Below are positions 1-59,308 of a stretch of 64,000 bases of DNA, one piece after another. Origin of the DNA: Callorhinchus milii (lineage: Eukaryota); assembly GCF_018977255.1 (NCBI RefSeq), contig NW_024704742.1, positions 52,206,001 through 52,270,000 on the forward strand, in the 5' to 3' direction. How positions within the stretch are numbered: position 1 is the first letter of the stretch; the number at the start of each line of letters is the position of its first letter. Both the position numbers and the translations under genes were made by a program. Below the pieces are notes generated by a model. It was not told the origin of the DNA and did not search any database. It was given only the letters and a program-made list of their open reading frames with translations.

Positions 1-3000
1 AGGTGCTTTTATGATGCCTTATTAGCCCTATCTATACAATATCGGTCAAAGATATATGACTTTCACGTCCTTTTAATTGACTTTAAACCGAATACAGTCG
101 GAAGCACAAATAGCATGTGTGTTTTCAGTAAAGGGGGGTCGACTTTCACAGGGGGGAAATATGAAACTATTAATTTGGAATCCATTTTTTATTTGAAAGT
201 GCTAAATACATCCAAACAACACCAACAACGACTCACAGGAACTTGAAAATAATGGGCATATAACAATTGCCATCTTTTGCAGATCATTCGTTTTTATCTT
301 GACTTTAAAAACATTGCTTTGCATTCCATCTTTGTAAACTGCACAAATATTGCTAACAAAATTAATGAATAGTAGCATCAATAAAACTGAAGAAACGTTA
401 ATGTCAGGTTTCGCAGATTCCTGACACATCATTCCGTGGCTTTTTTAAAAAAAACAAAGGTGAATATTTCACTAAAAATGTTTGATTTAAAAAAAGTTTT
501 TTTCATGCATCTGGTTATAACACTAACAAAATAATACAAGTTGTTGTGAGCTGAACAACTGGATACCGAAGTTATAAAAATGCCCGCTCACTATTCTTTT
601 CTTTCAGTATTTCTGAGTTTTAAAAAATATTTTATATTATAAAGCTGGAGTTACGCAAATGTACACGGCTGTTACCTAGAAGGTTAGCATTGTGGACAGT
701 TCCATCTAAACTGCCCAGTTTATTCACAGCTTCACTTCAATAAAAGATTTATATATTTTTTCTTTCTTTTTGGAACTTCTGCAAAAAAAACCCAGCAAAA
801 GTCTACGTTGGCCAAGGGAAAGCTTTGACAGGTATTCTGCTGCCAAAGCCTTGCATTGAGTGGGACCCCCTGACGGGTGCAACCCCGAAGCCTTTGAACA
901 CAGAGTTGAAGGGCTCCAATGTCGGCTTAGTGAACGATTTAGTCACTGTTTCATTAAGCACTATTTGAACCTTGCAACATGTGGTAATTTCTAGGGGCAA
1001 GTTAACCGTCGTGTAAAAGAAGGATTATGTGGTAGGGACACAAGAAAATTAGCTAACGGTTAATTTAACTCGTTTCTGGCAGAATTTTCGATACATTTCT
1101 AATTGACTGGGGAGGCAGGTGAAGCTGAAGCCTAGGCGCACACAGACTCCCATATAGAGTGAGAATAAATGGGACCCATTTAACTCACTATTGACAATCT
1201 ATCATCACAGAGACCCACGGAATAACCATTCGTTTATTTTTTCATTAATTAAATTAGATTCTGCCTTGCAGGTGGATAGATCAAAGCCATCCCGCCAACA
1301 AGTAAGTATATCCAAAAATTAGACCCTTTTTGCTGGTTGTGGGCTACAGGTTTTAAGACTTGAGACCAGCTGCTGGGTATTCGCCTGTCTTTGTAGCCAA
1401 CAAATGTAAACCACAGAGAATGATCAAAACTGTCAAAACAAGGGACAGAAGAGAAATTCAGCCCTTATTAGCATCAATCAACCAGCGCTCAGCAGCCGAG
1501 CCAGCAAGTGATTAATAGCAATTATTTGTACATTTCTCCCTATCCAAGACTCGTAATATAGATTGTGGTAAAGCTTTATAGGTTAGTGTCATAAACTGTC
1601 AGATTGTATACTTTATTGGTAGCCTCTCTCTGGATTGTTAACCAGCGAGAGCGTGTTTTTGGGGCTGCATCAAGGGAAACAAAAAAAATGATACTAATCC
1701 TCTAAGGCAGAGCAATGGTTCCTTTGAATTTCTACTTCTCCAAGCAGCCAAAGAGAGGGAGAGAGAGGGAGAGAGAGATGGAATGATGATAATGAAATTA
1801 CTTAAGAGCAGCTTGATCAGACGGCATCTTTTGTAATCTGGCGAGCGCACTGTTCAGTTCCAAGCACAAGGCGCAAAACGCACAGCGTCTCCATTCGCAC
1901 CGCCGCTCGCTTTTTTTTGAAAAAAAGTTGTTTTTCTTCAACAATATCCAGATTTCAAAACTTTCCCAAACTTGTGCAGGGTTTGAAAAGGCAGCTTGCA
2001 GTAAATCAGCCTCCTTTGGTTAATAAGGCCACGGAGCACACAATAGAGGCAGAACTTAGTACCTGGGTCTGGTAGGCGAGGTGGGATATGCAAATGACAG
2101 GATATTCGCAAGGAAAAATACTCGAATCCTCCAAATGGCTCTTTTGTGAGTTTCTTTAGAAATCAAGCAATTCTGCATGACAAAGAACAATTAATAAGCC
2201 GTCTTTTCACGAGCTAGCAGCTGGTAACCCGTGGGGAAAGTAGGGGAAAATCAGAGATGAATGCGCGCAAAAGTTTTATTTTGCGCACCGGCATCCGCTG
2301 TTTGGAACTGTGGCCACCTGAACAATGTCGATGCAAAGAAACACTTGTGAAGGATCAGGAGCTTTTAATAAGCATAAAACATCTCGAATCACTTATGCAG
2401 TGGCTTTAGAAAGGCTTTGGGCTGGAGATGGGGATGTTGGAGATAGTTGGACGCGTGGCGGATCAGTGTCTCTTTTTGGAGTGAATTACGCGGCGAGCGG
2501 CCGCTCAGCGCACAGTGTGCCTTTGCTCGCTTTGTCATTCCTTTCAAAGTACCTTTCTCTCCACCTCCCCCCTACCCCCCCCCCCCCCCCAAAAAAAAAA
2601 AGAAGTGTCAAGCAGGAGGTCGAAGAATGTCATCTTTGTTCTATCAGCGTGTGCCTCATATTGGTAACATAGCTAATTTTTTTTAAAAAGTTGCTTTTTG
2701 TGTCTGTGTATTAGTATTTGAAAGAGACTGAAAACCAGGCGTCCGAGGAGAGCGAGAGAGAGGGGGATAGAGCTGCTTAATGTGATTTATACTTCTTTTG
2801 TAACAAATTGAAGGGTTTTCCTCTTCTAATTTCAAGGCCCGGTGCCTGCACCAAGCAACTTAAGTACATTTTGGTTAATGCGTTAAGAAATGGTACATAA
2901 AGAGCTCTGTATAATACATTTTATATTCAAATGTGAATGCGAGCTCCATAATAAATTACATTTAGGAATTTTACAGATATAGCTTACGCAGGAGTTAGTT

Positions 3001-5099
3001 TCCACCTCTATGTATTTCTCAACACTACCATATATAATATATACGCAATGGGTTGGTGTAAAATGATAGTTTGGGATTGAAAAACAAACTTATATTGCTA
3101 AATAATCGCAATAGACTCAAATATAGTGTGTCGGTCTATTGAGAACGACAAGTAACGTTTGTCATTTGCTGTTTAGACATACAGTACAATAAAATAATAC
3201 CGCAGTCTGGACAACAGCGGAATTCCGTCTAATTCATTTAGTCACAATATTCTTTGCATATTTAAACTTCATCAAAGTTCAAAATGCATCTGTACACGGG
3301 TGCAGTAGGATCATCGATTTTCAGGTATTAATACTGATAAAGTGGAATATTATCTTTGCGCGTCCCCTTATTCTGAACTCCTAATTAACAGGTCGGTTTA
3401 TGTTATTGGGGTTATTAATCAATAGCACAAGATTAATATTTTTTGCAAGAATTTTCTGTGTAAGCACGTATAGCTATATTATAGCTCGGGATTTTCTCCC
3501 GACGTGAAAGGCACTATGAAAATGCAATTTTGTATTGTACATTTTAAAACGGATATTGGATTCGATTTGGGTTGATACCCAATGGTTTATACTGTTGCTT
3601 AACAAAGATACCCTTTGAGCAGGTATAAACCACATTCCACAAATATGACGAAGGTGTTGTTGCATTAATACTTGCCCCACCCTCTCCAATAAGCTTTCTA
3701 AAAGGGACCTTCAGTCACAGGAGATGTATTATTTCCTGCTGCCACTGTGGGGACTTTATTGACTTGAGAACAACACGGTACTTCAGGCACCGGAGAACCA
3801 CAATGCAGTTGGTTGGACGTATTAGATTAAATAACTTGTGGCAACACATTCCCGAAATAAAACTTTGCCGGCTCCCACCCTTATAGTCCATATCAATCAG
3901 CAAGTGATGGGAAACTGCTGCCAAAACAGGAATCATTTACATTGGAAAGTTCAACGTGTTGTAATTGCACAATAGCAATTCAGTATTATACAACAGGGTG
4001 GATATCCTATGTGTTTCAGATACAGATACAGATGGTCTCCGTGCTAATAAACACAATTCAGATGAGGAAAATGTATTTAATCCGAGATGGATAAAACAGA
4101 AATGCGCGGACAGTGAAATCAGACGCACGGAATTTCAAGCAATATCTTTATGGCAATGGGCGCTCAGTGAATGGGGTGGAATACGCTTGTGTTATGATGT
4201 TACGAGCCAGGTTAGCTTAGGCTGGATACATCTGTGCAGTCTATACTGCATCTGTAAATTACAGACGGCTTTAAAAGCACCTTGAATCACATGTTAGCTT
4301 CAGTGATACAGGGTGTGTGGCAGAGGCTGTCTGGATACAGGAGCTCCGTCCCTTTCTGTGGGATGGTGAAAGCACTCGGTCGGGGCGGCTACTCACTCAC
4401 ACGATGTACAGCACAGGGTATCAGCGTGCGGTTACCCTAAATTACGATCAGATCATCGCTGTAGTATGATATTGCATTTCACGGTTTGTAATGGTCAGTG
4501 CAAACCTGTGTCAATGAAGGTTTCTACGCGCGAATGGGGCACGTTTTGTGTCGATGGAATATGTGCGTACACATTGTTGTGTGATTTATTGTTATCTATT
4601 CTGTTGCAGCTGAAAGCATGCATATCGCGAACCGAATGATCTGCCATACCGGGATAACACCGGGATAATACTGGAGGTTGGGGGGTGTCACAGGGGACCC
4701 CTGGCGACCTGTATACATACCCCCAGAGTCTAAGAATGGACAGAAAGTGCCACAGGAAAGAATTGGAGAGGTAGGTTTACATCCGTGGTTTATCGACATT
4801 TAAATGTATTTTTCGCTTACGTATCCCATGTACCATGTTGATCTCTATCCGTAATTTTCTGTACAAGGGCATCGTTGTATACCCCCCCCTCACCCCCCCA
4901 TCCCGGGACAATCCTGTCTCGATATAGTACTGACTGTACGAAACATAATGGCTCACACTGGGGCTCACCACGATCACTACACGATTCACATATTATTTTG
5001 CTTCCTGTTTAAATTCAATATTCCCATTCTGCCTTTATAATATAATATGTATCTACTTTTGTTCATGTTCAGGGAAAAGCTGTGAATATTGTCCATATC

Positions 5100-5315
5100 C
5101 CACCGGGGTCAGGGATTCTTCTCACTCAGCTCCTGGTAGCCCTGCAAACCAAAGCCCTGGCGGATAGGGTGGTCCTGGCCGGACAGCAGCGGGAAAGCTT
5201 GTCAGACAGTGTTTTAAATAGGAAGCTATGCAATTTTAGCCGATTGGACTCCAGCAGGTCCCCAACACACACTCGCCGGTCCCCAGCCTTGGCTCTTGCC
5301 AACCTGCACCTAATA
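5100..5315 (+). repeat. Unclassified interspersed repeat; other copies at ~22180-22480 (-), ~30095-30240 (+) and ~58790-58990 (-)
   Basis: Shared core CTCAGCTCCTG(G/T)TA(G/A)CCCTGCAAA(C/T)CAAAGC(C/T)CT in both orientations. Confidence 0.65.
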
Positions 5316-5319
5316 ATGT

Positions 5320-5650
5320 GGAGTCCTGCAGCTCAGTGGTGAGAGCACTCTCCTCGCAATCGAGAAGCCTGGGTCTGTTCTCGGCAGAGCAAAGCCTTGG
5401 GTAAGTTTGCTTACTCCACACACCTGATAATAATCCCCCAAGAAAAAAATAAAATAAATTGGTCCTTTCAATCCACGACTGTTTGTGGGACACTGCTGTG
5501 CGCAATTGGCTGCCGGGTTTCGCCCACAAATATACAGTCTATTCCGTGAAGCGCTTTGAGACGTCTCAAAGATGTGAGAAACGCTCTATCAAATGCAAGG
5601 GTTATTTATTTACTTATTTATTTGTTTGTTTGTTTGTTTGTTTATTTGTT
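5320..5650 (+). mobile_element. tRNA-derived SINE (Deu-type core, L2-like tail)
   Basis: tRNA-like head with an A box (AGCTCAGTGG), core TGCTGTGCGCAATTGGCTGCC and tail GTGAAGCGCTTTGAGACGTC...ATCAAATGCAAGG plus a T-rich repeat. The family has more than 10 copies in the window. Confidence 0.85.
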
Positions 5651-6395
5651 CATAAAACTCTCCGAACTAGGTAAGCAGGATGTGTCCCTTCAGGGAGGGA
5701 GTGTACATTGCAATGCACAGCAATTTTCAATTGTAGGCAGGATGCATGGAACCTGTTTGGTTTGGGTATTCCTAAGGATGCTGACGGATTTCTGCGAATG
5801 TCAGACATCCAGCTGTCTACGTAAAAAAATCTTAAAAACCTTGAGTTGTGAAATATTAATATAATTTGACTAGTTCTGCTTCTGATGCATCCAACATTTT
5901 TTGTACCACACAGGAGCATGTCTCAAAGTGATTTAGAGTGGGACTGCATGCCATGCACAATTACACCTGATAAACGGAGACTCCAAAGAAAATATCCAAA
6001 ACAGGTTACTGGAACAATAGCTCTGTTGAAACAACAACAATAGCAACAAGATTACATTTGTATAGCGCCTTTCACGTCAGGAGGATGTCCCAAGGCGCTG
6101 GACAGAGTACAGCATTTCAGACCTGAGCTGGGGTCGAGGGAGGGGTGGGGGTGGGGAGGTGGGTGGGTGGGGGGGGGGGTTAAACAGAGAAGATATTGAG
6201 ATTTTTTTCAGGATAACTAGATCAGATCTCTTCTGATATTAAGGAAATAAATGATGGGTACCACGGTTGTTAATGCAAATTAAGTTGTTATTGTTGTAAC
6301 GTCAACCACTTAATGATTGAAACACTGCTGAATTATTTACTTAAGGATGTGAACAGGTATTTTTTTTGCAATTTATTCTGCTGCCTCCAATTTAG

Positions 6396-7202
6396 TCCTC
6401 ACTGATATCTCCTCTCTCCTCTCATCCCTATCCCTCTGCACTGAACACCTGCTCATAATGGGTGATTTCAACCTCCATCTTAACTCCCCTTGCACCATCT
6501 CCTCAGATTTCACCACCCTCCTCGCCTCCCCAAACCTCACTCTCCACATCAACTCACTGACCCAAAACCGTGTCCACCCTCTCGACTATGTCATCACACA
6601 TCGGCTTGACATTTCCAACCTGTCCATCATGGACAAGGCCATCTTGGACCACTTCCTCATCTTCCTCTCCTCCCACATCCCCTCCTCTCTTCCAAGCTCT
6701 CCACCATTTTTTTCTGCTATGGAAAAAGCTTCCCCCAAGTCCCTCACAAATGCCCTCTCTTCCTCGGACCTCCTCATCCTCAAGCTGCTGAATGATCATC
6801 TCTCCACTACATTTAATTCCCTGGCTCCCATAAAATCCAGGGCTGTTTCCAAATCCACCTGCTCCCCCTGGTACAACAGTCATCTCCACTCATTTAATAC
6901 CCAAACCCGGGCATTCAAGTGCAGATGGCAGAAGTCAAGCCTCATGATTCACCGCATCGATGGCTTAAGCACCTCCACACCTACCGCCTCTCCTTTTCGC
7001 AGGCCAAAACTGACTTTTACTCCAAAGTGATCCTGGAGGCCAAAAAGAAGCCAAAGATACTGTTTTCCACCATCCATCATCTCCTCTGTGCATCCCTTCT
7101 AGCTCCCCTTATCCTCACATCAAATGCCAAGTGCAAAGAGGTCCTAGTCTTCTTTGCCTCAAAGATTGAAAACATCCCCTTGGCTGCATTGTCCTCCCCC
7201 CC

Positions 7203-13865: not shown

Positions 13866-13924
13866 ACCATATAGATCGCAGCATGTAGTTTTTTTTNCCA
13901 CCACAAGGGAAACAAGATTTCTAA

Positions 13925-15146: not shown

Positions 15147-16594
15147 AACAACAACAACAAGATTCCATTTATAGAGTACCTTTCACGTCGGGAGGACATC
15201 CCAAAGCACTGGACAGTTGGGTCAGGACCCGAGCAGGGGGCAAATGGTCAGGGTGAGGGGAGGGAAGGGAGGGAGCGAGGAGGGGGTAGAGAGTTGAGAG
15301 GGGAGCTGAAGGCACGGTCAAAGAGAAAGGTCTTGAGACCGGCCTTGAAGGAGGAAAGGGAGGAGACAAGGCGAAGGCACTGGGGGATAGAGTTCCAGAG
15401 CCTCAGGGCTGAGAGGCTGAAGGCCTGGCCACCGATGGTAGGGTGGTTGGGGCGGGGGATCTGGAGCAGACTGGAGCCAGAGGAACGGAGGATACGGGCA
15501 GGTAAGTAGGGGGATAGTAGGTCAGAGAGGTAGGAGGGAGCAAGGCCGTGAATGGCCTTGTAAGTGAGGATGAGGATCTTGAATTCGATCCTCTGGGGGA
15601 TGGGAAGCCAGTGGAGGCAAGTGAGGGTGGGAGTGATGTGGTCACGAAGCCTGGTAGGAGCAGTGGCAGGAGCTGTGGTGGAGGGAGGGAGAAGGCAGCG
15701 TGGATGGTCTGGATGGGGTGGAAGGGGACATGGGGTGGCGGGGGGGGGGGGATGTTGATGAAGCAGCTAAGCAAAGGTTTTAATTTTTGAGGCGAAGAAG
15801 TCTAGGACCTCTTCACACTTGACATTTTATGTGAGGATAGAGGAGCTAGAGGGAATGCACGGAAGGGGTAATGGATGGTGGAGAACAGTGTCTGGGTTGC
15901 TTTTGGCTTCCAGGATGACTTTGGAGTAAAAATCAGTTTGGACCAGTGGAAGAGAGAGGCAGTGGGTGCGGAGGTGCTCGAGTCACAGATTGCAGTGAAT
16001 CGTGAGGCCGGATTTCTGTCATCTGCGCTCAAGCGCCCGGGCTTGGGTTTTAAGTAAGCAGAGATGATTGTAGTGCCAGAGGGAGCAGGTGGTTTTGGAA
16101 ACAGTCCTGGATTCCCCTCTAGCTCCTCTAGTGAATTAAAGGTTGTGGAAAGACAGTAATTCAGCAGCCTGGTGACTGCATCAGGATTGCTGTGGGTGGA
16201 GGGCCAGATGGAGAGGAAGTCCAAGAAAGAGAGGGTATTTGTGAGGGACTCGGGGGAAGCTTTTTCCAGGGGCAGAAAAGAATGGTGGAGGGCTTGGATG
16301 AGGGGAGGGGGATGCGGGTGGAGAGAGAGATGAGTAAATGGTCCAAGATGGCCTTGTCCATGATGGACCGGTCGGAATTGTCAAGGCCATGTGTGATGAC
16401 GAGGTCGAGGGAATGGCCACAGTTGTGGATCGGTGAGTTGATCTAGAGGGTGAGGTTTAGGGAGGAGAGGAGGGCAGTGAAATCTGAGGAGATGGTGCAA
16501 GAGGAGTTAAGATGGAGGTTGAAATCACCCATTATGAGCAGGTGTTCAGTGCAGAGGGATAGGGATGAGAGGAGAGAGAAGATATCAGTGAGGA
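15147..16594 (-). mobile_element. L2-clade LINE, internally deleted; inverted relative of 6396-7740
   Basis: The reverse complement is highly similar to 6396-7260 and shares the same 5' start (TCCTCACTGATATC). Poly-C junction near 15740, then an L2 3' end and (TTG)n tail. Confidence 0.85.
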
Positions 16595-17045
16595 TACATT
16601 AATGCAATAAAAACATTAGTGCACAATTTGTATAAATGGTGCAATTGCTTTCTCAGAAGCTCTCACTTATTTGCGCAGCAAAGTCTAATTGCATTTGCTT
16701 TATGCACTTTACAGCCCGTAATTGCCTTTTATTGATTTTTCGCTCTAAAATGTTGGACAACTGTAGAACTCCACAGACTGTGCATAAACTATTGAATTAC
16801 ACTCAGCAGCTTACAGGTTGCAGTTGTTCTTACAGATGTTTATGATCCAGTAGTAGACGAACCCAGCCTGTTTGCTCGGTGCCTGCCAATCCGATCAGGG
16901 GGTTGTGGTCAATCACATGTCAGCGACAGGCAGCGAGTGTTGGTTCAGTTGTGAGCGTTGATTCCGTGTGACTTCTGGGATCTCAGAGCTTGAAGAGAAG
17001 CTGTGGGGCTGTGGGACTGATGAGATGTCACTTGGCACTTTAGCT
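16595..17045 (+). promoter_or_regulatory. Candidate Pdx2 proximal promoter / 5'UTR
   Basis: Unique sequence between a LINE end (16594) and the ATG. Contains an Onecut/HNF6-type TATTGATT (16730-16737), a FoxA-type TGTTTGC (16869-16875), CCAAT (16886-16890) and the E-box CACATG (16914-16919). These are motif matches only. Confidence 0.45.
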
Positions 17046-17367
17046 ATGGATGGTGGCGTGGACTACTTCGACACTGCCTGTCAATACGAGAGTTCAGAGC
17101 TGGGCCTGGATCCACCTGCCTGTACCCAGGCCAGGGCGCAGCAGCCCCAGTTACTGATATCGTGTCTGGGTGATTTGGACCAGAATAACGTGGCGGGTGT
17201 CAACCTTTACGAGAGTCCCCCGGGTTCGGATCCCGGACACTTCTCCCAGTCTGATCACCTCACTTCAGGGTTTGGGGATGAGCTTCTGCTGCATCAGGGG
17301 CGCTATCCGTTCCCCTGGATGAAGAGCACGAAATCACACACCTACACGCTAAGGAGCCAGTGGACAG
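17046..17367 (+). CDS. pdx2: Pdx2 (Pdx/Xlox ParaHox homeobox gene) exon 1
   Basis: Reads MDGGVDYFDTACQY...DPPAC...LDQNNVAGVNLYESPP...YPFPWMKSTKSH...QWTG. It has the Pdx PPAC motif and the hexapeptide FPWMKSTK, and ends at a phase-1 donor ACAG|GTATGG. An alternative in-frame ATG lies at 17025. Confidence 0.92.
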
Positions 17368-20012
17368 GTATGGTTACAGGGTTACAGGGTTACAGGGTGA
17401 TCGATTATTAAGCTCAGCGCTTGGTTTGAGTCTAAAGCTACAGTGGGGGTGGAATGGACAAACCAGGTCATTATTGCCCACCATATATGTAAACCTTACA
17501 CACATATTGCACACCTGTAGGTGCATCGCACACTTAAGTTCTTTCTGCGTCAAGATTTGTTCTATTTCTGCTGTATTTTTGGAAGTCAGTGTTTAGGCGA
17601 CTTGTTTAGTTCGGTCTAAACTTCGAAGTTTCTTTTTAAAAAATTTTTTTTTATACAAATACCCCAGACCTCGCTGGAATTTCAATCTACAGGTGTATGC
17701 GTGCACTTAGGTTGATGCATATGTTGTGCAAATATGCAGTGCATAACAGAAAAAACAGTTCAAAAAGTATGGCAGCCAAATAAATAATACAACTAATTAA
17801 ACGCCCTGTTTAGTTGTTCACCCTGACGGCACCAAATAAAATAAAAGCACAACAGTACATAAGTTTCAATGGTATTTTACGAACACTGTTCATTCGAATC
17901 AAGTGAGTGCATTGAACATGTATGTTAAACCTGGCCATGTTGCATGCTGTTTTGGGAATGATGTCGCTGCTGGAATTCGGGAATTGTTACCTGCGGAAAG
18001 TAACCCCTCACAGCAAAATAATGTGGATTGTGATAAATTGTCTGAAGAGATCCAATAGGAATTTTACTTCCCTGAAAATGTCACCCCGGGAGACTGCGCT
18101 GGGTTCATAGTGACACTGATCCGATTGCAGTGTGTGTTGGATTTAAAGGCCCAGATCTCTTACAAACTATCTTGCACACAGTGGTTTGGCTGGTTTTGCG
18201 TGGATTGGATCAATCAGTATTTTTTTCTGATAAACGTGTTTCAACGCTGGATGCAGCAGCTCTTCAAACGCACATACCCGCGCTTTAAGAATAAAATGTA
18301 TTTTCAACTACATTATCCGAAATGCACAGTTGAATTCCTTTGAAATATTATTTTATCCTGTTTTGAACGGCGCTTGCATTCAGGGTAAATGTCTAAACAT
18401 ATTTACGCCTGCCAGACTTCAATGACAAGTTAACGTGGTAACTAATATAATTATAATTACGGTACTAACATAATTTTTAAATAAAGAGCGGGATGAGGTC
18501 TGAAGAGGGGTTTTAATTTAATTTAACACACGGTTGTCGTCGGGAATCATGCATACCTTTTCCTAGTTGCAATCTCTATGTGTGACAATGAAATACAAGA
18601 TCCAAGTTTCATATTTAATGTATAATAACGTGCTGCGAAATCGCATTGCACTTAATTCTGAGTGGGTCACTTGCTCAGTAATAATATCCCTGGAACTTCT
18701 AAAAGTTAGATATTTTGTGGTATACGTTTCGAAATGAGTGATGCAGGGATAATGACAAATGCAATGCGCCACATATTGATCCCCAAAGCAAATGATGAAG
18801 TATAGAATATTGATAGCACCAGAATGTACCCCCCCCCCCCCCCCACACACACACACTTTTAGGCAAAAATGACTCAAGACCAGAAAAGCTCTTCTTTAGG
18901 GGCAGAGAATAAGGACTTTTGGTTAATTTTTAAACACAAAATAAAAGAATTACATATAAAGCTAATAAAGCCATAGAGCGAATTAGGAGTGAATTAGGAA
19001 TGGAGCGAATTGGGTTCCAGATTCATTTAAAATACTGCAGTACAGTAAGTGTCACTTAAAATTTCCTTTAGCTCTAGAAATTCTTTACATCATAAATAAA
19101 ATTAAATACGTAGGATACCGAGGCTAGCAATAAAGATATACAAACTTATTTTGCAGTAAACTAGAGAATATATATAATAAAATACAATCAAAATACAATT
19201 GACCTTTGCAAGAAATCTATCTGCAGCGAATATAAAATAATGCCAAAGGTGAAGCTTAGCGTATTAAATGCTTCTGTTGGTGCTTCGGTTGTATTAACAA
19301 CAACAAAAACTTGCACTTATATAGCGTCCTCCACGCGGGGTAGCGTCTCAGAGCGCTTATTAAACAATACAGTTAATTATTTTGAAGAGCTGCAGATATT
19401 TGCAATCTTCAAGCACACTGTTAGTTTCAGAGAACACCTTTTGAGCACAGTAACCGCTCCAAGCGCAATTTTCTATAGAAACTGACTGCAGTGGAATGGA
19501 GAGCAATACTTCTATGGAGGCAATTTTATTTTGCTCTCGTTGAAAACGGCAATGCAGGTTTGAGAAATTGATGAGGGGGTAAGTCAGTTATCCGAGATGG
19601 GGGATCCATTCACTTTCTGTAAAAAATACAATATTCGTATTTTACACGTGCCTGTTTATCCCATCTTTCACACAGGTTGGTTAGGTCTTTCCAATCTGTA
19701 AGTAGACTACGTTTCCACAAGTCAAGCTGAACGCCAGAAACGCTATCCTTGCGAGAGGATATATATTATTGCGATAAATTGTGTTTTTTCTTTACAACGC
19801 AAAGTATTGCAGCTCAAGTCTTTCAAAAGTGCAATCCGTTTCCTGGCGTCAGGTTCAGGCGCTTCGCAGAACATACTGTAGAGTCAGTTGACTGTGTAGT
19901 TTCGTGGGCGAAACATGGGAGCCAATTGCGCACAGCAATGAATACATGGAGAATGATGCTGGGTGGTCAACAGCTAATGTAAAGGAGATCATTTACACTA
20001 GTTTTGTTGCAG

Positions 20013-20380
20013 GAAACGGTTTTGCAATGGAAGTGGATGAAAGCAAAAGGACGCGCACGGCTTATACCAGGGGACAGCTGTTGGAGCTGGAGAAGGAATT
20101 CCACTTTAACAAGTACATCTCCAGACCTCGACGCGTTGAACTGGCGATAATACTGAACCTCACAGAGAGGCACATCAAGATCTGGTTCCAAAACAGGAGG
20201 ATGAAGTGGAAGAAAGAAGAAGCGAAACGACAAACTCAAACGGTTTCAAACAAATCCAAAACTTCAGTGCAGGAAAAGTGTTCAGTGGAAGCGGAAGAGA
20301 GGAACACGACATCCACCAGAAAGCACAGTGATTTTGCTGTGCCTGGAATCAACAGCGATATTAGACAATTCATCTCATAA
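20013..20380 (+). CDS. pdx2: Pdx2 exon 2 (homeodomain, 20042-20221)
   Basis: Acceptor ttttgttgcag|GA matches the phase of exon 1. Encodes [60 protein letters not shown], with the Xlox/Pdx-diagnostic His44 and the YISRPRR motif; stop TAA ends at 20380. Spliced CDS is 690 nt (229 aa). Paralogue assignment rests on linkage to PDGFRA. Confidence 0.95.
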
Positions 20381-21074
20381 AATAAAAGTAAAAATAAGTG
20401 CTGTTAAAATAAACCAATTGATCGTTGCCTGTCGCCCAGTGCTGATGAATGTTGTAGCAAGGTTTAGAATTTATCAAACAAGATTGTAGCAGGTGCAATC
20501 ATTCACGTTTTGGGATATTTAACCTACTCTTGCGAAGCAAATGCAAAATATATTGACTATTTTATTAAACGTGTTTCATTGCATGGTATAAATTAGCCAA
20601 GTACGCAAGTCTCAGCGCTCCTCAGTCAGTGATGGGCATATCGATGTTTTTGATGTAATAATCCACCTGTTCAGACTCAAGAAACGAAACTTAATGTACA
20701 CATTGCTGTCAGCAATAAACGGACAATAGTCTCTGGATATTTAATTCTCTGTTCAGTTTACATTTCGCTAAAACATATAGAAAATGTGGATGTGAAACGT
20801 ACGTTTCTTTTGTAAAAAGATATATATATATATATTGCAGCTGAGATTCCTGTCAGTAGCCTGACAGGGGCAGGTAGATTTGTGGTTTAGCTGGACCGAC
20901 CTTTAACATTAAATATTTGCTTCAGAGCAAACCTCAGCCCTCAGGGATTACTCGACAACTGTAATGTTTGTCGCATCGACCAGATCGAATCTATAATGCA
21001 ATTGACACAGGGATCGAGTTTAGCTACAAAAGGCCCGTGTGTACTCTCTACTAGGTATGGTGATATATTACAAC

Positions 21075-36963: not shown

Positions 36964-37402
36964 AGAGAGAGGAGAGGAGAGAGAGAGAGGAGGGGGAGAG
37001 AGAGAGAGGAGGGGGAGAGAGAGAGGGGGGGAAGAGAGAGAGGAGGGGGAGAGAGAGAGAGAGAGAGGGGGGGGAGAGAGAGAGGAGGGGGGAGAGAGAG
37101 AGGAGGGGGAGAGAGAGAGAGAGGGAGGGGGGAGAGAGAGAGGGGGGGAAGAGAGAAAGGAGGGGGAGAGAGAGAGAAGGAGGGGGAGAGAGAGAGGAGG
37201 GGGAGAGAGAGAGAGAGAAGGAGGGGGAGAGAGAGAGAGAAGGGGAGAGAGAGAGGAGGGGAGAGAGAGAGGAGGGGGAGAGAGAGAGAGGGGGGGAAGA
37301 GAGAGAGAGGAGGGGGAGAGAGAGAGAGAGAGAGAGAGAAGGAGGGGGAGAGAGAGGGGGGGGCGGAAGAGAGAGAGGAGGGGGAGAGAGAGAGAGGAGG
37401 GG

Positions 37403-37433
<31 letters not shown>

Positions 37434-37596
37434 AAGAGAGAGAGGAGGGGGAGAGAGAGAGAGGAGGGGGAGAGAGAGAGGGGGGGGGAAGAGAGAGAGG
37501 AGGGGGAGAGAGAAAGGAGGGGGAGAGAGAGGAGGGGAGGGGGGGGGGAGAGAGAGAGAGAGAGAGAAAGAGGAAAAGACTTAGAGAGGAGGGGAG
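36964..37596. repeat. Polypurine (GA/GGA/G-run) low-complexity tract
   Basis: About 630 bp of almost pure A/G on the + strand, built from variants of GAGGAGGGGGAGAGAGA. Confidence 0.95.
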
Positions 37597-38055
37597 CAAC
37601 AGTCACAGGGAGACTAAAGAGAGCGAGTTTTACATTTTGCAATTCCTCGACCACCTCTTAATCCGTATAGTCCAGTTACTCAGTTACTCCTACTCTGCCT
37701 GTGGTGAGATTGTCCCGTTTAAACAAAAAACAACAACGTCTGTCGTCCTCGATAATGTCACCGGAGCACTCTTGCCCAGTTCTTTCGGGGTAATACGGTA
37801 TCCTGTTCGCATCCAGAACAAGAGGCTGTTCACATTGGCCTCGCCGTTGCCTCCAATAATTTCCTGGAGCACATGTGGAAGTAATAGTTGGCCTGTGCAT
37901 TCACAGCGCAGAAGATATATTACTACAGCGAGCGGCTGCAGGCAAGATGGGAAACAACCCAAAGGGAAGGAAGGAGAGAGCCATCAAACCTGCAGAATGC
38001 CCGACCAGGGATACACTTACACACTCATTTGCATCTAATCTCATCACGTTTCTCC

Positions 38056-51981: not shown

Positions 51982-52042
51982 ATGAACATCTTCTTGAAGA
52001 TACTTTTGATCTTGGATTGTGTCTTTCTAGGGGTTTTCAAAG
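51982..52042 (+). CDS. pdgfra: PDGFRA exon 2 (start codon, signal peptide)
   Basis: Acceptor ctccacag| at 51966/51967 and ATG at 51982. Encodes hydrophobic MNIFLKILLILDCVFLGVFK and ends at a phase-1 donor AAAG|GTAAGC. Confidence 0.85.
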
Positions 52043-52528
52043 GTAAGCACTTTACTGTTTTTGAGCACCTCATTCAGAAGCAATGCAAACATCTGTCAGT
52101 GCAATCCATGTGACATTGTGTCAGTGCAAACTAAGAATCCCCCAAATAAAATTGGTCATTAATTTTTTTGGCTGTTTGCGGGACGTTGCTCATTCGCCTA
52201 CAAAATGCAGTCATTCACTTTACAGTTTATCTTATGCAGCACTTTGAGACGTCCTCCCAATATGAAAAGGGTAATACCAAATGTTAGGATTATTATTATT
52301 TTTTTGAAAGCTCCAGCAATTACATTGCATTTCATTTAGCATGTGGTGATATTGAAATGATCGGTTAATGGGATGACTGAAGGATGGGTGTTCTGGAAGG
52401 ATGAGATCTGATAGGCTGAAGGGGATTCTTTATCCAATCCAATTTTGTGATCTTGTGATAGTTACAGAGATAATAAGAGCAGAGAAGCATATTCTTTTAG
52501 ATCTAAATCTACTTCTGTCTATTTTCAG

Positions 52529-52843
52529 GACCCCAGGTTGCTACCTGCCAGAGTTTTCCAGATATTTATCCCAACAAGGCAGAAATAATCGTCAAGCTTC
52601 ATACGTCATTCAGCTTGAAGTGTTCAGGAGACAATGAAGTGGACTGGGAGCTGCCATTCCCCACTGATTTTGTTACAGATGTCAAGAAAAAGAGTGAAGA
52701 GAATAACAGTGGGCAGTTTGTGAAATCACTTGACATCGAGAATGCAATGGGCACATTTACTGGGAGGTACATTTGCTATTATACTGGAAAACAAGATGAC
52801 TACGACGATATTCTGGGCCGGGACATCTATGTTTTCATTCCAG
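52529..52843 (+). CDS. pdgfra: PDGFRA exon 3 (Ig domain 1)
   Basis: ttttcag|GA ... CCAG|gtatgt. Encodes PQVATCQSFPDIYPNKAEIIVKLHTSFSLKCSGDNEVDW...TGRYICYY...DIYVFIP; 315 nt, phase 1-1. Confidence 0.93.
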
Positions 52844-54617
52844 GTATGTGCGTTTGTGTGTGTGTGTGTAATTGGACAGTTCAAAGGTGTAGATATAGTA
52901 GAGCTCCATTCAAATGCAATAGTTGTGTTTCCAATAAATTCCAACCGGCTTTATAATGGAGCTCAATCTCTGGTTAGTGTTTCTGCAACATGACTTCACA
53001 TGACTGGTGAAATCACTACATGTCCATGCAGAAAAACAGCCAGCGTCCTGTGCTATAAAATACCTGAATTCCAGGACATATCCATTGCTGCCAACATTAC
53101 TGCAGTCCACATCTTAGTAGTGAACCCGTGTCATATTGGGGACCATTATATTGTACCAGCAGTCTGGAACTCCATTGTGGCACCATTAGTAGTAACTGCC
53201 AGTAGATTCATTGTGTTGTTTACCCTGATTATGCTCTGTTGGATATGTTAGTGCAGGACTGGCTCTTCTGCATATCCTGGGTCCAGCACTGTTCTATTGT
53301 ATATGCTGTGTACAGGAACAGTGTCCTGGATACACTATGTGCTGGAGTACATTCCTGGGTATCCTGGGACTCCTAATCAGCCAAATTGGCTTTCTATAGG
53401 TTAATAGAGTTGCACTGGCTACCGTACAATATTTACATACTTTAAATGTTTGTGCACCATATTCCATAAGGCATGAACATTATTGCATGGTGTGTTCTGA
53501 TGCATGTAATTTAGCCAGATGCTGGCCAAAGCAGGCAGAGACCAACATTCTGTCTTGGCTAGCAGCTGTTACACTGTGGATGCTGTGGCAAGTTTCATTC
53601 ATTGCTGAACCTCAGTGAGCTAAAATCTTGCCACAGCGTCCACCATGGTTTATGCACTTTACAGCTCATTGCTGAACTGATCAAACCCAAATACGAGGGG
53701 AAAAAAATGTTTCCCTCCATTCAGTCAGAATATTTATTACTTATTCTACTGGGGGTGTTAATCAATTTCATTGTGTGATCTGAAGTTACTCCCTGCACTA
53801 ATTTTGGTCTCAAACACTGACTCCAATACTCCAGGAAAAGCTTTGAGCAATGTTTCTGTTTTTATTTACATCTTTTGATTTTTTTTGTTTTAACAATGAT
53901 ATGGATTTTGTCATTTTAAGAGAGTAAGTATAGTGCTATGAAATGCAGGAGGCAGTTCAAGAATCCAGTTCCGCAGTTAGAGATTTATCCTTTTTTATTC
54001 CAAGGTTTATTCTTAAATACAGAATCTTCTGATCAGTGTTGAATTCTCCTCTGCTGGTTCACCCAGTACCATATGTGACCCTTCCATGTGGAAGGAGAGA
54101 ACAGTTTGAGCCGGATACCTCTCTCCACGATCTTCTGTGCTTTGTTGCCAATACGAGTGGGCGAGTTGGATGATGTTGTTTTTTCCTTCACCACAAGCTG
54201 GAATACCTCCCTCCAGCAAGCTGCCTGAGAGCAGCTGACACCCATCCAAACCAGAAGTCTTGATGGAGTGACTGGCGGCCTATGATTCTAGCTGTGTGTC
54301 TAACACTCAACTGCTTGGATTAGGTCACCTGTAAAGCAACATTGGGGAGCTAGCTGTATTGATCAAGAATGTATTGATCTGGAGAGAGGTTAGAAATAAT
54401 TTTCTCACTCAGAAGGTTGATACGGTTCAAAATGGAACTGGATAAACACCTGAGAAGTAAAAAAAAGCAGTGATATGAGCAGGCTAGAGAGTGGGATTAA
54501 TAATTGAAAAAGGAGAAAAACAGAAAGAATACATATTCTCAGTTGTTTAGTTTGGAGACTCGCAAGCACGGTAATGGGTTTCCGTGTATGTCAGGAACCC
54601 GGCTGACCTGGCTGTGT

Positions 54618-54928
54618 GAAGTCCTGTAGTTAGAACACTCGCCTCGCAAGTGCGAGACCTGGGTTCGATTCCCAGCAAGACGAAACCGTGGGCAAGTTTT
54701 CTTACTCCACAGGACTGATAATAATCCCTCAAGAAAAAAAACAATAAGAAATTGGTCACTTCAATCCACGATTGCTTATGGGACACTGCTGTGAGCAATT
54801 GGCTGCCGCGTTTCGCCCACAAATGTACAATCAATTCATTTTATAATATATTCTGTGAAATGCTTTGAGACGTCTAGAAGACGTGAAAAGCTTTATATCA
54901 AATGCAAGGATTATTATTTATTATTATT
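54618..54928 (+). mobile_element. tRNA-derived SINE (same family), PDGFRA intron 3
   Basis: B box GGTTCGATTCC, core and tail. Confidence 0.85.
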
Positions 54929-55236
54929 GTAAACAAAACAATGGCATAAATATAATGGCCAAATGACTTCTTCTTGTGCTGAAAATGTCTGTTTCTATTC
55001 TATAAGGTTTTACTTTGCAACATTCAAATGACATATGGTAGCATGACCTTATAAAGGGATATCTCACCGTAATCTTACAAGCATTGAATAACATGCACTC
55101 ACACCCTTCAGGACTTTCAAGCACATGTTGTACTTTGAAACTTATATTTCACTGATTGAAACTTATATTTCACTGATTGAAACATGTAATGGCTGTTTGT
55201 AGCCAATATTAATTATTAAATGTTATCTTTTCCTAG

Positions 55237-55502
55237 ATCCAGAACATCCGTTTGTCCCACAACAATGTTTGAACATGTAGTGATGGCTGCATTTGGTGAC
55301 GTTGTGCTTATTCCATGTCGTGCATCTGATCCAGAGATCCAGGCCACCCTGTTTAACATAGAGAATAACAGCACAGTCTTTGGCATTTACGACCATAAGC
55401 AAGGATTCTCCGGTCATTTCCAAGAGGGAACCTATACCTGCACCACAACAGTTAATGGAGTGAAGTATGAATCACAAGAATATATTCTTCATACATTTAG
55501 AG
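55237..55502 (+). CDS. pdgfra: PDGFRA exon 4 (Ig domain 2), with apparent 1-bp deletion near 55256-55258
   Basis: ttttcctag|AT ... AGAG|gtgcgg. DPEHPFVP is in one frame and TTMFEHVVMAAFGDVVLIPCRASDPE...YDHKQGFSG...GTYTC is in the adjacent frame. The length of 266 nt is not compatible with phase 1-1. Confidence 0.9.
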
Positions 55503-55924
55503 GTGCGGCCCCTCTTTACAGTTCTTTCATTTCATTATATCAATGCTGATTGTCTGCAGCAACATTGTTTGCTGGGATCAAGCTTATCTGAGACTAACAC
55601 AACATAAAGCTGTGGTCAATGTTGAAGTGGCCTATATCCTGTATTGTAGAAGCAAAGTGTTCACGATTAGGCAGTACAGTTCAATAATGGCTTGTGGAAA
55701 CTTATTGATAGCAAATGCTTCTAAGAACAAAGTAGATAGGTATTTTTGTAAACTTGTGCCTTTTTTTTTCTTTCTAAATTTATATTTTGGAGGCTCATCA
55801 AGATACGGAATTAATGCCTAGCAATGGAAGCACAGTATTGAGCACTGCTAGATCAGACACTATATGGTGTCAAAAGTATTTCCAGTATTTAAATAACTCC
55901 CAATTGTCCTTTAAACCTCACATC

Positions 55925-56620
55925 CATGCTGTGACCCCTTAGCTTTTCTCACCTCCATCCACAACATTGCCCACCTCCACCACTATCTCTCCCCTCGGGC
56001 AACTACATATTCATAATGTCCAGGCTTGACTATGCCAACGCTCTACTTGCCGGCGATCCAATTTTTCCCTTCAAAAGCTACAGATTATCCAGAACTCTGC
56101 AGTTCATGTCCCTCACTAGGCTTCACTAGCCTATCACCCTCATCCTCACCTGGACCAATGGCTCCAAATCCCCAGTGGATCCAGTTCAAGATCCTTGTCC
56201 TAACCTTCAAATCTTTCTATGGTCTTGTCCCCCTATCTCTGCGACCTTCTCAAATCCTACAAATCCGGCCACTCCCTTTGCTCTGCAGGTACCAGCGGGC
56301 ACCAGCCTGCTTCGCGTCGCCCATCCTACCCACCTCACCATTGATGGTCAGGCTTTCAGCCTATCTGTTGGAAATCCATCCCAGAGTTCCATTGGCTCAA
56401 CCCTTCTCTTACCTTATTTAAAGTCCATCTGAATATCTTCCTCATTGAACCATGCTTTTGGTAATCTTTCCCTCCCCATCCTCCTCACCTCCCACCCCAC
56501 TTCAGCTCCCACCCCCAGCTCGAGCGTAAACCCTGTACTGTCCTGCGCCTCGGTATGTCTGCCCGACATGAAAGATGCTATATAAATAAATCTCTACAAC
56601 ATAAATAAAATGTTGTTGTT
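55925..56620 (+). mobile_element. L2-clade LINE 3' fragment in PDGFRA intron 4
   Basis: Degenerate SRLDYAN / IQNSA / IQFKILVLTFKS motifs and the family 3' tail. Confidence 0.75.
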
Positions 56621-56772
56621 GATATTAAAAAGAATGTATTTTCCTATTTGAATAAGAAATTGCAATTAATAACCTAAAAGTGTTATTTATGTTTCACTGC
56701 AGAGATGGATTTCAACACAATATCTTTATTAGAAGGATTTCAACACAACATCTCTGTACTTTCTATTTTTAG

Positions 56773-56903
56773 TGGCTGAGACCCTTGAGGTTGAAATAGA
56801 AGCTCCTAAAACAGTAGTGAAAGTGGGTGAACCTATTTCTGTGACCTGCATGGTAATGGATAATGAAGTGGTGGATATAGAATGGAATTATCCAGGAAAA
56901 GAT
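56773..56903 (+). CDS. pdgfra: PDGFRA exon 5
   Basis: tattttttag|TG ... GAT|gtgagt. Encodes VAETLEVEIEAPKTVVKVGEPISVTCMVMDNEVVDIEWNYPGKD; 131 nt, phase 1-0. Confidence 0.93.
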
Positions 56904-57348
56904 GTGAGTAAAATAAATCTTTTCCATTCCTATGTTTGTGACATTTTCATACTGCCTTCCATTCAGAATGAGTATTAGTGAACACCTTAAATTTAGATCC
57001 ATTCCTTTGCTTATTGTTGATCAGTAAATTTTCTCCCAATGTTCACATTTTCTTTCATTAACAAAAATGGGTGGCATCATCCTTGTGTTTTGGATGCCTA
57101 TTGCAATTTTATTTTAGGTTCTGGAGGCAGGATTTGAGTACTACTCCCCAGGATATTGTCGGAATTAAGACAGCGGCTTATTTAGCTTGACCAAACACTG
57201 ATCTCCATAATTGGGACAACTTTAGACATGGAGAAATCCTCAGGCACATCCCTTGTGCTGAAACCACTTGGGAAGATACTCATTCATTCTGAAATACCCC
57301 ACTGGAAGAGATTGTGGTCATTCCAATTGGTTTCTTGTCTCATTACAG

Positions 57349-57523
57349 AAGAGGACTATTGCCATTCAAACACTTCGTGAAACAAGAATACCAAACTTAA
57401 AAATTATGAAGACCCTGCTCATTGAGAATGCCAGTCTGGAAGATTCTGGAGTTTATGAATGTTCTGTGGAACATGCAACCCAATTTACCAATCAATTGAG
57501 GAAAGTTCGCATCTCTGTCAATG
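57349..57523 (+). CDS. pdgfra: PDGFRA exon 6
   Basis: cattacag|AAG ... AATG|gtatgt. Encodes KRTIAIQTLRETRIPNLKIMKTLLIENASLEDSGVYECSVEHAT..., including the Ig DSGxYxC motif; 175 nt, phase 0-1. Confidence 0.92.
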
Positions 57524-57955
57524 GTATGTATTGGTTATATCCCACGTCTGTCATATTCAGATCATTCTGGAGTCCCAAGACTTGGCTCATACCAACCTGC
57601 ATCTTTCCGAGTTTAGATCCTCTGGGAGAGAGAGTGTGAATCCCATTCCAGACCAAGGAACATTTCCATGCTTCTGGAATGGGCTTTGTGGGTGTTTGGC
57701 TTTACAATATTTTCTGTGAAGCGCTTTGAGATATCTCAATCTTTCTGCTGCCCCCCCCCACACTAAAACAGTCATCTTTTAGTTGCTTCTTTTTAATGGG
57801 ATTTCTCAGTACAAATACTAAATGAAAAGACTAATGAGCGGTGAAAGACAGATTTCTCTTGACCGTTTTTCTTTCCCTTTATTATAATGCAAGTATTCTA
57901 AGAAGCCTGTTGCTTTATTGCAATTCAGTTGACATTCTTTCAATTTCGTTCACAG

Positions 57956-58145
57956 ATAAAGGTTTCATCCACTTGAATCCTCACTTCGGAACACAAGAGT
58001 TTGCAAATCTGCATGAAGTTAAGCAGTTTGTGGTGGACATTGAAGCTTACCCAAAACCTACTGTACGGTGGTTAAAAAACAATGTCACACTGCATGAAGA
58101 GAACAATGAGGTGATAACCAACTTGGCGGATGTGCAGGAAACCAA
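57956..58145 (+). CDS. pdgfra: PDGFRA exon 7
   Basis: ttcacag|AT ... ACCAA|gtaaga. Encodes DKGFIHLNPHFGTQEFANLHEVKQFVVDIEAYPKPTVRWLKNNVTL; 190 nt, phase 1-2. Confidence 0.94.
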
Positions 58146-59308
58146 GTAAGACTGCAACCTGTACAGGCTGTAAAACAAATCCACATAATAAAGCATCTTC
58201 GACACGATTGATGAGATAATGCTCAGGTAGAAAGAGTAATGAGAATAACACAGTTATTTATAATAACTTTTGCTTTATTATAATTAGAATTATGTTATCC
58301 TGCAGTATTTAACTTGGTATAATTTTTTTACATATATAAAGTGTGCCGAAGTAAATCCTATCTATCTCTCTACATAAAAGCTTTTCAGCGTGGTGTCACT
58401 GACGGCTCACTTGGGAAAGGCACTTTCCAATGTGGAACTGAACCACACGAATAAGACCCTGAGTTCAATGCTCAGTGTGTGCTGAATGTGTGCTGGATGG
58501 CTGATCTACCTTTCATGTGTGACAAATTAGGAAACTCATCACAATGCTTAATCGTATCCAAAACAGTCTTAGAGTTCCGCACATGCATGCCACCTACACA
58601 TGGCAATGTCCCTGTGTCTGGAATGGAATCTGTTTTCTCCCTGGAGTGATGTGCCCTGCTTACCTATTCCAGAAAGTATTAGTTATAGGATGGCGAGACT
58701 CCGGTGTGTGTATTGGGACCCTGGAGTTTAACCACACCCTTCCCGATGTGAAAGGCACTATATAAATGTACATGTGTAGTTGTCAACTAGCTAACATTGC
58801 ATAGCTTGTCAATGTGTCGTAGCATTGTCTGGCAAACTTTCTGCTTGCTTGGGAAGCAACTCTTGTCCAGCTAGCAGCACTCTACTCTTCAGGGCTTTTG
58901 CTTGCAGGGTTAAATGGAGCCGTGTGGGAAGAATTCCTGCTCCCAGTAGGCTCCTCCAAATGCTGTCAATGAGCTCGGCTGGCTGGTTATTAGCAGTGTG
59001 AATCTGCCTGGATCAGGAACTGGATACTGAGACCGCACAGATCTAATTTGGGTGGTGACAGGATTTTGACATTTGGGCTCAATGGTTTTAGGAAAGTTGC
59101 ATGGGTTCTCAATCCCAATAGGTATCCAGTGAGCTTAGGTTTGAAATGTGGACGTGTGTGGAAGTAACGTAAGGCAAATATTTGGCTTGGCTGTGAAATC
59201 ACTTCCACATTCACAGAACTTGCTGACACTCACTCATACCGAAACAAATTGAAATGTGTGATTGCACTTCTGTTAAATGAGAATCTGTTTACTGTTGATT
59301 TTCTGCAG

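Follow-up and report, generated by a model that had tools for sequence, protein, structure and literature searches.

Does the homeobox gene upstream of PDGFRA in the elephant shark Callorhinchus milii belong to Pdx1, the pancreas and duodenum homeobox gene that every jawed vertebrate possesses and that plays a central part in pancreas formation and insulin regulation, or to its sister Pdx2, and is it intact? We addressed this question in a 64,000-nucleotide stretch of the 991.5-Mb C. milii assembly (GCF_018977255.1; contig NW_024704742.1, here C1, positions 52206001-52270000, forward strand). This whole stretch is called the window, and coordinates given without a contig are positions within it. 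We conclude with high confidence that the window carries an intact two-exon Pdx2, predicted to encode a TAAT-binding, PBX-pairing homeodomain factor that likely acts in pancreas and gut endoderm. The role of Pdx2 has been called enigmatic (PMC4362833).

The gene model, obtained by reading the sequence and splicing it with a script, and the signals that a pattern scan located behind it are as follows.

17046..17367, plus strand: Pdx2 coding exon 1, 322 nt (107 codons plus 1 base), with the N-terminal MDGGVDYF...PPAC region and the hexapeptide
17368..20012, plus strand: the sole Pdx2 intron, phase 1, 2645 bp, GT...AG
20013..20380, plus strand: Pdx2 coding exon 2, 368 nt, with the homeodomain, the C-terminal tail and the stop codon TAA at 20378-20380
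20381..20386, plus strand: AATAAA signal abutting the stop codon
20408, 20564, 20714 and 20908, plus strand: further AATAAA/ATTAAA signals

The donor reads CAG followed by GTATGG and the acceptor TTGTTGCAG followed by G, both canonical GT/AG sites. The joined frame of 690 nt encodes 229 residues plus TAA and holds no internal stop and no frameshift. These coordinates, splice sites and protein length reproduce the clean two-exon Pdx gene with an FPWMKSTK hexapeptide and a His44 homeodomain that a preliminary description of this DNA had reported. The PBX-type hexapeptide (17310-17333) is in exon 1 and the 60-residue homeodomain (20042-20221) in exon 2, so that the intron separates the two. The homeodomain carries His44 (20171-20173), which we take to be a mark of the Pdx/Xlox homeobox family. 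It matches the Pfam Homeodomain profile PF00046 (E = 5.1e-23), and the best solved structure for the protein is the PDX1 homeodomain 2h1k (E = 1.4e-32, 55 of 60 residues identical), followed by Scr (Sex combs reduced; E = 5.1e-25). FPWMKSTK aligns with the corresponding motif of all 21 other Pdx proteins in our alignment A2, and exon 1 can be aligned with Pdx2 of sharks, rays and the coelacanth. A further motif near the C-terminus (20330-20362) takes the form DF[AS]V..IN.[DE][IV] in 7 of 12 elasmobranch models; this chondrichthyan motif was not found in the coelacanth or bony-fish proteins compared.

The intron contains a poly-C/CA run at ~18830-18860 and two high-copy repeats at ~19297-19453 and ~19768-19990, which appear as depth peaks of 9084 and 2221-3409, respectively, against ~10 for unique sequence in sequencing run X1. 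This run is DNA, since it covers the intron at a depth of ~10; its contigs cover both exons (records 3 and 8). The second repeat is SINE-like (short interspersed nuclear element), ends ~25 bp short of the exon 2 acceptor and resembles open reading frame (ORF) fragments at 5239-5538 and 54550-54840, both on the minus strand.

When the exon 1 query was searched against longer proteins, 46 candidates were scored and one passed, with 100% identity: the NCBI model 'pancreas/duodenum homeobox protein 1-like [Callorhinchus milii]' (P0001). In a search with P0001, 7723 of 8000 scored candidates passed a threshold of 1e-10. Among the best 120 of these, the 13 top matches after P0001 itself came from 12 sharks and rays and from Latimeria chalumnae; all are labelled 'PDX1-like' (52-65% identity) and rank above every PDX1-named protein, C. 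milii Pdx1 (P0025) included. Rows for maximum-likelihood trees were hand-picked from two such listings of 120 matches, leaving out Hox-named, unnamed and redundant matches, and the smaller tree, of 39 rows, was rooted on 8 invertebrate Xlox rows. In this tree the window protein falls in a 15-row Pdx2 clade (support 99/98), separate from the Pdx1 clade (100/99). In a 58-row tree built with a careful tree search, all 31 Pdx2-type rows lie on one side of a branch with support 96/99 and 20 Pdx1 rows form another group (100/99); the window protein joins 8 elasmobranch rows with 98/93. A tree constrained to place it within Pdx1 is worse by 32.2 log-likelihood units and is rejected by the approximately unbiased (AU) test (p-AU 2.3e-5). 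The phylogeny for which the preliminary description had called thus puts the protein within Pdx2, and by the combined evidence of sequence and position the window gene is Pdx2, not Pdx1.

The homeodomain by itself leaves the assignment undecided, being identical to that of C. milii Pdx1 at 55 of 60 positions and to those of elasmobranch Pdx2 at 53-56 of 60, so that the assignment rests on the flanking protein regions and on synteny. The Pdx2-specific signal lies in the N-terminal region, in His21 for Leu of the homeodomain, in EEAKRQ for EEDKKRGR after it and in the short C-terminal tail. A homeodomain equally close to both paralogues, like the NCBI label 'PDX1-like', would also suit a lineage-specific duplicate of Pdx1 that arose within cartilaginous fishes rather than an ancient sister dating from the genome duplications of early vertebrates. 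Such a duplicate is hard to reconcile with a clade that unites the window protein with the 'PDX1-like' proteins of coelacanth and ray-finned fishes and excludes all 20 Pdx1 rows (96/99 and 100/99), and with the rejected union with Pdx1. The genome holds only two Pdx-type homeoboxes, that on C1 (100%) and one at C4:69429884 (89% at the protein level), the further matches being Hox-cluster genes at 75% or less, and the surroundings of the two differ.

The window gene lies in a Gsx2-PDGFRA-KIT-KDR region with the order Gsx2(+), Pdx2(+), PDGFRA(+), KIT(+) and KDR(-).

C1:52203067, plus strand: Gsx2 homeobox, named through sequence clusters
C1:52226042, plus strand: Pdx2 homeobox, genome match
C1:52271198, plus strand: PDGFRA juxtamembrane exon, genome match
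C1:52334663, plus strand: KIT-type exon, 57% to the PDGFRA juxtamembrane exon, best PDB match KIT
C1:52468265, minus strand: KDR exon (VEGFR N-terminal immunoglobulin (Ig) domain), VEGFR2 at 5e-18 vs VEGFR3 at 9e-7

The Pdx gene on C4 lies in the paralogous Gsx1-Cdx-FLT3 region, with the order Gsx1(+), Pdx1(+), Cdx(-), FLT3(-) and a VEGFR-like exon(-).

C4:69404102, plus strand: second Gsx homeobox, 98% in the homeodomain
C4:69429887, plus strand: Pdx1, Pdx-type homeobox
C4:69455073, minus strand: match to the Caudal activation domain (Caudal_act)
C4:69497381, minus strand: FLT3 exon, 50% to the PDGFRA juxtamembrane exon, FLT3 at E = 2.1e-15 vs PDGFRA at 4e-9
C4:69727368, minus strand: weak VEGFR-like Ig exon, matching the VEGFR N-terminal Ig domain

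Thus Gsx1, Pdx1, Cdx and FLT3 stand together on C4 and not around the window gene, in line with the Gsx1-Pdx1-Cdx2-FLT3 cluster in which the preliminary description had placed Pdx1. Skate and coelacanth are reported to have the same arrangement around Pdx2 as the window (PMC2944030). Contradicted already by the trees, the AU test and synteny, an origin of the window gene as a Pdx1 duplicate of cartilaginous fishes is extremely improbable.

The two other ParaHox regions complete this picture. The Caudal activation domain has three matches in the genome, on C4, C13 (C13:19095989, minus strand) and C15 (C15:15552930, plus strand), and none on C1. C13 combines its Cdx match with PDGFRB-like and CSF1R-like exons; on C15 the Cdx match stands alone. 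The PDGFRA juxtamembrane exon has five genome matches: itself, C13:19119148 (82%), C13:19355365 (58%), C1:52334663 and C4:69497381. C. milii therefore has seven ParaHox genes (2 Gsx, 2 Pdx and 3 Cdx) in four paralogous regions (C1:52.20-52.47 Mb, C4:69.40-69.73 Mb, C13:19.10-19.36 Mb and C15:15.55 Mb), with exons of class III/V receptor kinases in every region but C15. Coelacanths likewise have seven ParaHox genes in four paralogous regions (PMC4471637). All four of these regions contain a class III receptor kinase, a Cdx gene or both, from which we infer that Pdx2 originated in the two early vertebrate genome duplications.

To the left of the window lies a two-exon Gsx gene on the same strand, whose stop is 19.7 kb before the Pdx2 start. 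The relatives of its exon 1 (124 aa) fall into two tiers, an upper one with 'GS homeobox 2' (E = 2.5e-34, 71%) and a lower one with 'GS homeobox 1' (E = 4.2e-8, 38%); of 10 clusters queried for this naming, 4 carried names, 2 of which were uninformative. To the right, the Ig-domain ORFs 52507-52953 and 57838-58146 match human PDGFRA with E = 3.6e-27 and 7.4e-17, against 3.3e-4 for PDGFRB. The gene continues past the right end of the window, with juxtamembrane and kinase exons in the next 10 kb. PDGFRA is thus downstream on the same strand, as the preliminary description had claimed, and the neighbours that it had proposed to look for, Gsx2 on the left and KIT and KDR on the right, are in place.

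That description had also raised the possibility of a misassembled join. Repeats interrupt the contigs of DNA run X1, which would fit an assembly artefact in the linkage to Gsx2 and PDGFRA. Neither the window nor its 10-kb flanks contain a run of N, from Gsx2 to the PDGFRA kinase exons, the sole ambiguous base of the window being a single N at 13897; the Gsx2-Pdx2-PDGFRA linkage is hence independent of any scaffold gap. Gene order and strands also agree with those of human 4q12. They agree as well with the published skate and coelacanth bacterial artificial chromosomes (BACs) (PMC2944030). We regard an artefactual linkage as next to impossible, and the physical association of Pdx2 with Gsx2 and PDGFRA as genuine.

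Some observations weigh against an intact and active Pdx2 at this position. Beyond the homeodomain identities given above, which do not split the paralogues, the KIT call is narrow, resting on one 46-aa exon (69.9 bits for KIT vs 66.1 bits for CSF1R) and leaning on its position. The start codon may be 17025 or 17046, and any of several poly-A signals could end the transcript. The sequencing-run search with exon 2 listed no RNA run as containing that exon, and the presumed RNA runs X5, X8 and X11, over 16000-20700, covered only repeats and a 32-nt homeobox piece and are uninformative on expression. The flanks of that piece (20180-20211) are unlike the window, so that it belongs to another homeobox gene. 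On the other side, X1 contigs differ from the window at 15 places, of which one falls in an upstream repeat, 14 are intronic and none touches the 690 coding bases. This hints weakly at purifying selection on the coding sequence; the count comes from one run, for which the intron rate predicts ~3.7 coding differences (P ~0.03). In the interval 17505-19750, 14 single-base differences and two one-base insertions relative to X1 were recorded, all of them intronic.

Could Pdx2 then be silent in the elephant shark, or a decaying relic despite its intact frame? Besides the negative RNA search, the divergence of C. milii Pdx2 would fit such a state: summed over branch lengths of the 58-row tree, C. 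milii is separated from the nearest elasmobranch by ~0.60 changes per column in Pdx2 and by ~0.16 in Pdx1, and the C. milii protein has PPACTQ where PPAC[LIV]Y is otherwise conserved. Decay is nevertheless difficult to square with a frame free of stops and frameshifts, with canonical splice sites and with a hexapeptide, homeodomain and C-terminal motif that are kept in common with elasmobranch Pdx2 across a holocephalan-elasmobranch split ~420 million years old (PMC6238376). The 0 coding against 14 intron differences in X1 point the same way, and the catshark orthologue is transcribed in the pancreas (PMC4362833). A silent or decaying Pdx2 is accordingly very unlikely, and we return to the intact gene.

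The predicted protein suggests how Pdx2 could work. By likeness to PDX1 it would enter the nucleus, its helix 3 would bind TAAT-core sites and its FPWMK motif would bind a PBX cofactor; DNA binding and PBX pairing are predicted because its homeodomain agrees with the solved PDX1 homeodomain at 55 of 60 positions and because the hexapeptide is conserved. The literature describes Pdx2 as conserved in its nuclear localisation signal, its DNA-binding domain and its PBX motif, and as not conserved in the transactivation and PCIF1-interaction domains of Pdx1 (PMC4362833). In our alignments the C-terminal tail of Pdx2 is short and unrelated to the long Pdx1 tail. Given the faster divergence outside the homeodomain and the lack of that long tail, Pdx2 probably regulates its targets through co-regulators other than those of Pdx1. 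In the elephant shark the factor likely acts in endoderm of gut and pancreas, a role suggested by RT-PCR (reverse-transcription polymerase chain reaction) and transcriptome literature on dogfish and catshark rather than by C. milii data. In the dogfish, Pdx2 was detected by RT-PCR in pancreas, duodenum and spiral valve, with a spiral valve signal above that of Pdx1 (PMC2944030); in the catshark it was found only in pancreas among pancreas, liver and brain (PMC4362833).

Pdx2 was named in 2010 by Mulley & Holland from a dogfish complementary DNA, skate and coelacanth BACs and an elephant shark homeobox fragment (PMC2944030). The skate BAC had the order Gsx2-Pdx2-Pdgfra, and the elephant shark sequences of that time were too poorly assembled to show neighbours (PMC2944030). 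The gene of C. milii is thus already known, as the preliminary description had said of Pdx2 in cartilaginous fishes and the coelacanth, and the full coding sequence and chromosome-scale neighbourhood given here are an increment on the 2010 homeobox, not a discovery. We found no paper on the linkage of C. milii Pdx2 in the literature searched, which did not cover the supplementary files of the C. milii genome paper, where it may well be contained. What the window adds is a confirmation of the Gsx2-Pdx2-Pdgfra-Kit-Kdr arrangement at chromosome scale in a holocephalan, where the 2010 study had to rely on BACs of skate and coelacanth. It also adds a complete coding model of a gene labelled 'PDX1-like' by NCBI, whose own model carries a further, repeat-derived 5' exon.

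Pdx2 of dogfish, little skate and coelacanth belongs to the same orthology group as the C. milii gene in both trees and has the same two-exon plan, hexapeptide, homeodomain and short C-terminal tail; in skate and coelacanth it likewise lies between Gsx2 and Pdgfra (PMC2944030; coelacanth clusters in PMC4471637). The elasmobranch proteins have the 52-65% identity noted above, and 7 of 12 elasmobranch models have the C-terminal motif of the C. milii protein; the coelacanth and bony-fish Pdx2-type proteins are without it. Pdx1 (IPF1/XlHbox8) has in common with Pdx2 the 55 of 60 homeodomain residues, His44, the FPWMKSTKSH region and an intron between hexapeptide and homeodomain, and the two probably recognize the same DNA core site and pair with PBX alike. 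Pdx1 differs in its locus, on C4 with Gsx1, Cdx and FLT3, and relative to it Pdx2 has His21 for Leu21, EEAKRQ for EEDKKRGR, a shorter N-terminus and no long C-terminal tail. The invertebrate Xlox of amphioxus, echinoderms, molluscs and a brachiopod has the same homeodomain type and hexapeptide as Pdx2 and, as a single-copy, pre-duplication gene, is the outgroup to both vertebrate Pdx genes in the trees. Xlox is the middle gene of the Gsx-Xlox-Cdx cluster (PMC2944030); unlike that cluster, the elephant shark C1 region has lost its Cdx member.

The trees raise a wider question, namely how far Pdx2 extends beyond cartilaginous fishes and coelacanths. It is held to have been lost in ray-finned fishes and tetrapods (PMC2944030, PMC4362833, PMC4471637), and a 2025 axolotl study restates this loss and reports no Pdx2 in axolotl (PMC11825805). 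A sturgeon protein (P0020) stood in the Pdx2 clade of the 39-row tree, and we used it as the query of a second search, of which the best 120 matches were considered. These matches are proteins of 190-240 aa, most of them labelled 'PDX1-like' and some unnamed or PDX1-named. Proteins of the P0020 type come from Polypterus, Lepisosteus and Amia, from elopomorph, osteoglossomorph, clupeiform, cypriniform, siluriform, gymnotiform, esociform and salmonid teleosts and from the amphibians Pleurodeles waltl and Pelobates fuscus. Those that score nearer to Pdx2 than Pdx1 are the ray-finned P0020, P0121-P0130, P0133-P0137, P0139-P0141, P0145-P0148, P0153, P0168, P0174 and P0177 and the amphibian P0142 and P0181. 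Traits common to the type are a short N-terminus, ELAA or ELAT for ELAV and a short tail. The 21 such proteins placed in the 58-row tree (19 from fishes and 2 from amphibians) all fall in the Pdx2 clade (96/99), within which their order broadly mirrors the species tree.

This grouping was put to AU tests. When the 19 ray-finned rows are constrained to group with Pdx1, the tree loses 25.6 log-likelihood units (p-AU 0.037), a marginal rejection of a placement for a group that was named after the tree had been seen. For the 2 amphibian rows the cost is 16.7 units and the placement with Pdx1 is not rejected (p 0.119), their branches being very long (1.62 and 2.11); we therefore do not claim the amphibian 'PDX1-like' proteins as Pdx2. 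On the whole we think it fairly likely that Pdx2 is not confined to cartilaginous fishes and coelacanths and is also present in bichir, sturgeon, gar, bowfin and many non-spiny-rayed teleosts (eels, bonytongue, herrings, catfishes, loach, knifefish, pike and salmonids), and maybe in a salamander and a spadefoot toad. The full-text literature searched, which did not cover subscription journals and supplements, did not report Pdx2 from any ray-finned fish or amphibian; two further papers name Pdx2 solely in their reference lists, as part of the 2010 title, and one set of results, made up mostly of sturgeon papers in which Pdx2 does not occur, carries no weight. The preliminary description had stated that teleosts and tetrapods keep only Gsx2 of this cluster; the statement agrees with the papers, and is put in doubt by the 'PDX1-like' database proteins in the Pdx2 clade.

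If the ray-finned genes, and perhaps the amphibian ones, are Pdx2, the account of an early and independent loss in ray-finned fishes and tetrapods would need revising, and Pdx2 function could become testable by knock-out in fishes that can be bred and edited. The axolotl study assumed that no paralogue can offset the loss of Pdx1 in tetrapods (PMC11825805); if the amphibian orthologues hold, that assumption would be worth a second look in other amphibians. Pdx2 of the elephant shark is the reference point that anchors this wider orthology group.

Two candidate additions to the 5' end of the coding model concern the start of the protein.

16348..16431, plus strand: extra 5' coding exon of the NCBI model, 28 aa, from P0001 mapped onto the window
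17025..17045, plus strand: possible N-terminal extension of 7 codons, MSLGTLA, from an in-frame upstream ATG, giving 236 aa vs 229

P0001 has 277 residues, of which the first 28 map to 16348-16431, and it rejoins the Pdx2 frame at 16986. The NCBI exon lies inside a high-copy repeat (~16314-16627) with a depth of 1761-2791 in DNA run X1 vs ~10 for unique sequence, and its 28-aa extension has no counterpart in the N-termini of the models from other species that were compared. Because of this location and the lack of a counterpart, the exon is probably not the true start but an annotation artefact or a lineage-specific leader. The shorter extension has a parallel in elasmobranchs: 11 of 12 Pdx2 models begin exactly 7 codons before an MD/ME start, an M-x6-M(D/E) spacing that makes 17025 a candidate. 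The start of Pdx2 may accordingly be at 17025 rather than 17046, with a protein of 236 or 229 aa. An out-of-frame ATG at 17020 opens an 8-codon ORF. Farther upstream, minus-strand ORFs resembling those of a long interspersed nuclear element, with a GDFN endonuclease-type motif, occupy 15.1-16.6 kb, and a related ORF is found at 6353-7027 on the plus strand.

The 5' end of PDGFRA in the window was read as follows.

51982..52030, plus strand: candidate first coding exon of PDGFRA, an ATG with a hydrophobic signal-peptide start, then GT, identified by eye
52507..58146, plus strand: PDGFRA extracellular Ig-domain exons, from ORFs 52507-52953, 55220-55546, 57262-57636 and 57838-58146 with Ig-type Pfam matches

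The first verified PDGFRA exon begins near 52528, ~32 kb past the Pdx2 stop, and the preliminary description had put the two genes ~18.5 kb apart. The candidate exon at 51982 has a good acceptor in front of it, which implies a non-coding first exon farther upstream; such an exon may lie near 38.9 kb, as the distance of ~18.5 kb requires. Between Pdx2 and PDGFRA, a long purine/pyrimidine-rich simple repeat at 36821-38035 is open in several frames of either strand, with translations of 216-365 aa that resemble ERERGG or SLSLSP. In a CpG scan of 30-43 kb it adjoins a GC- and CpG-rich 500-bp bin (37001: GC 0.63, observed/expected CpG 1.59).

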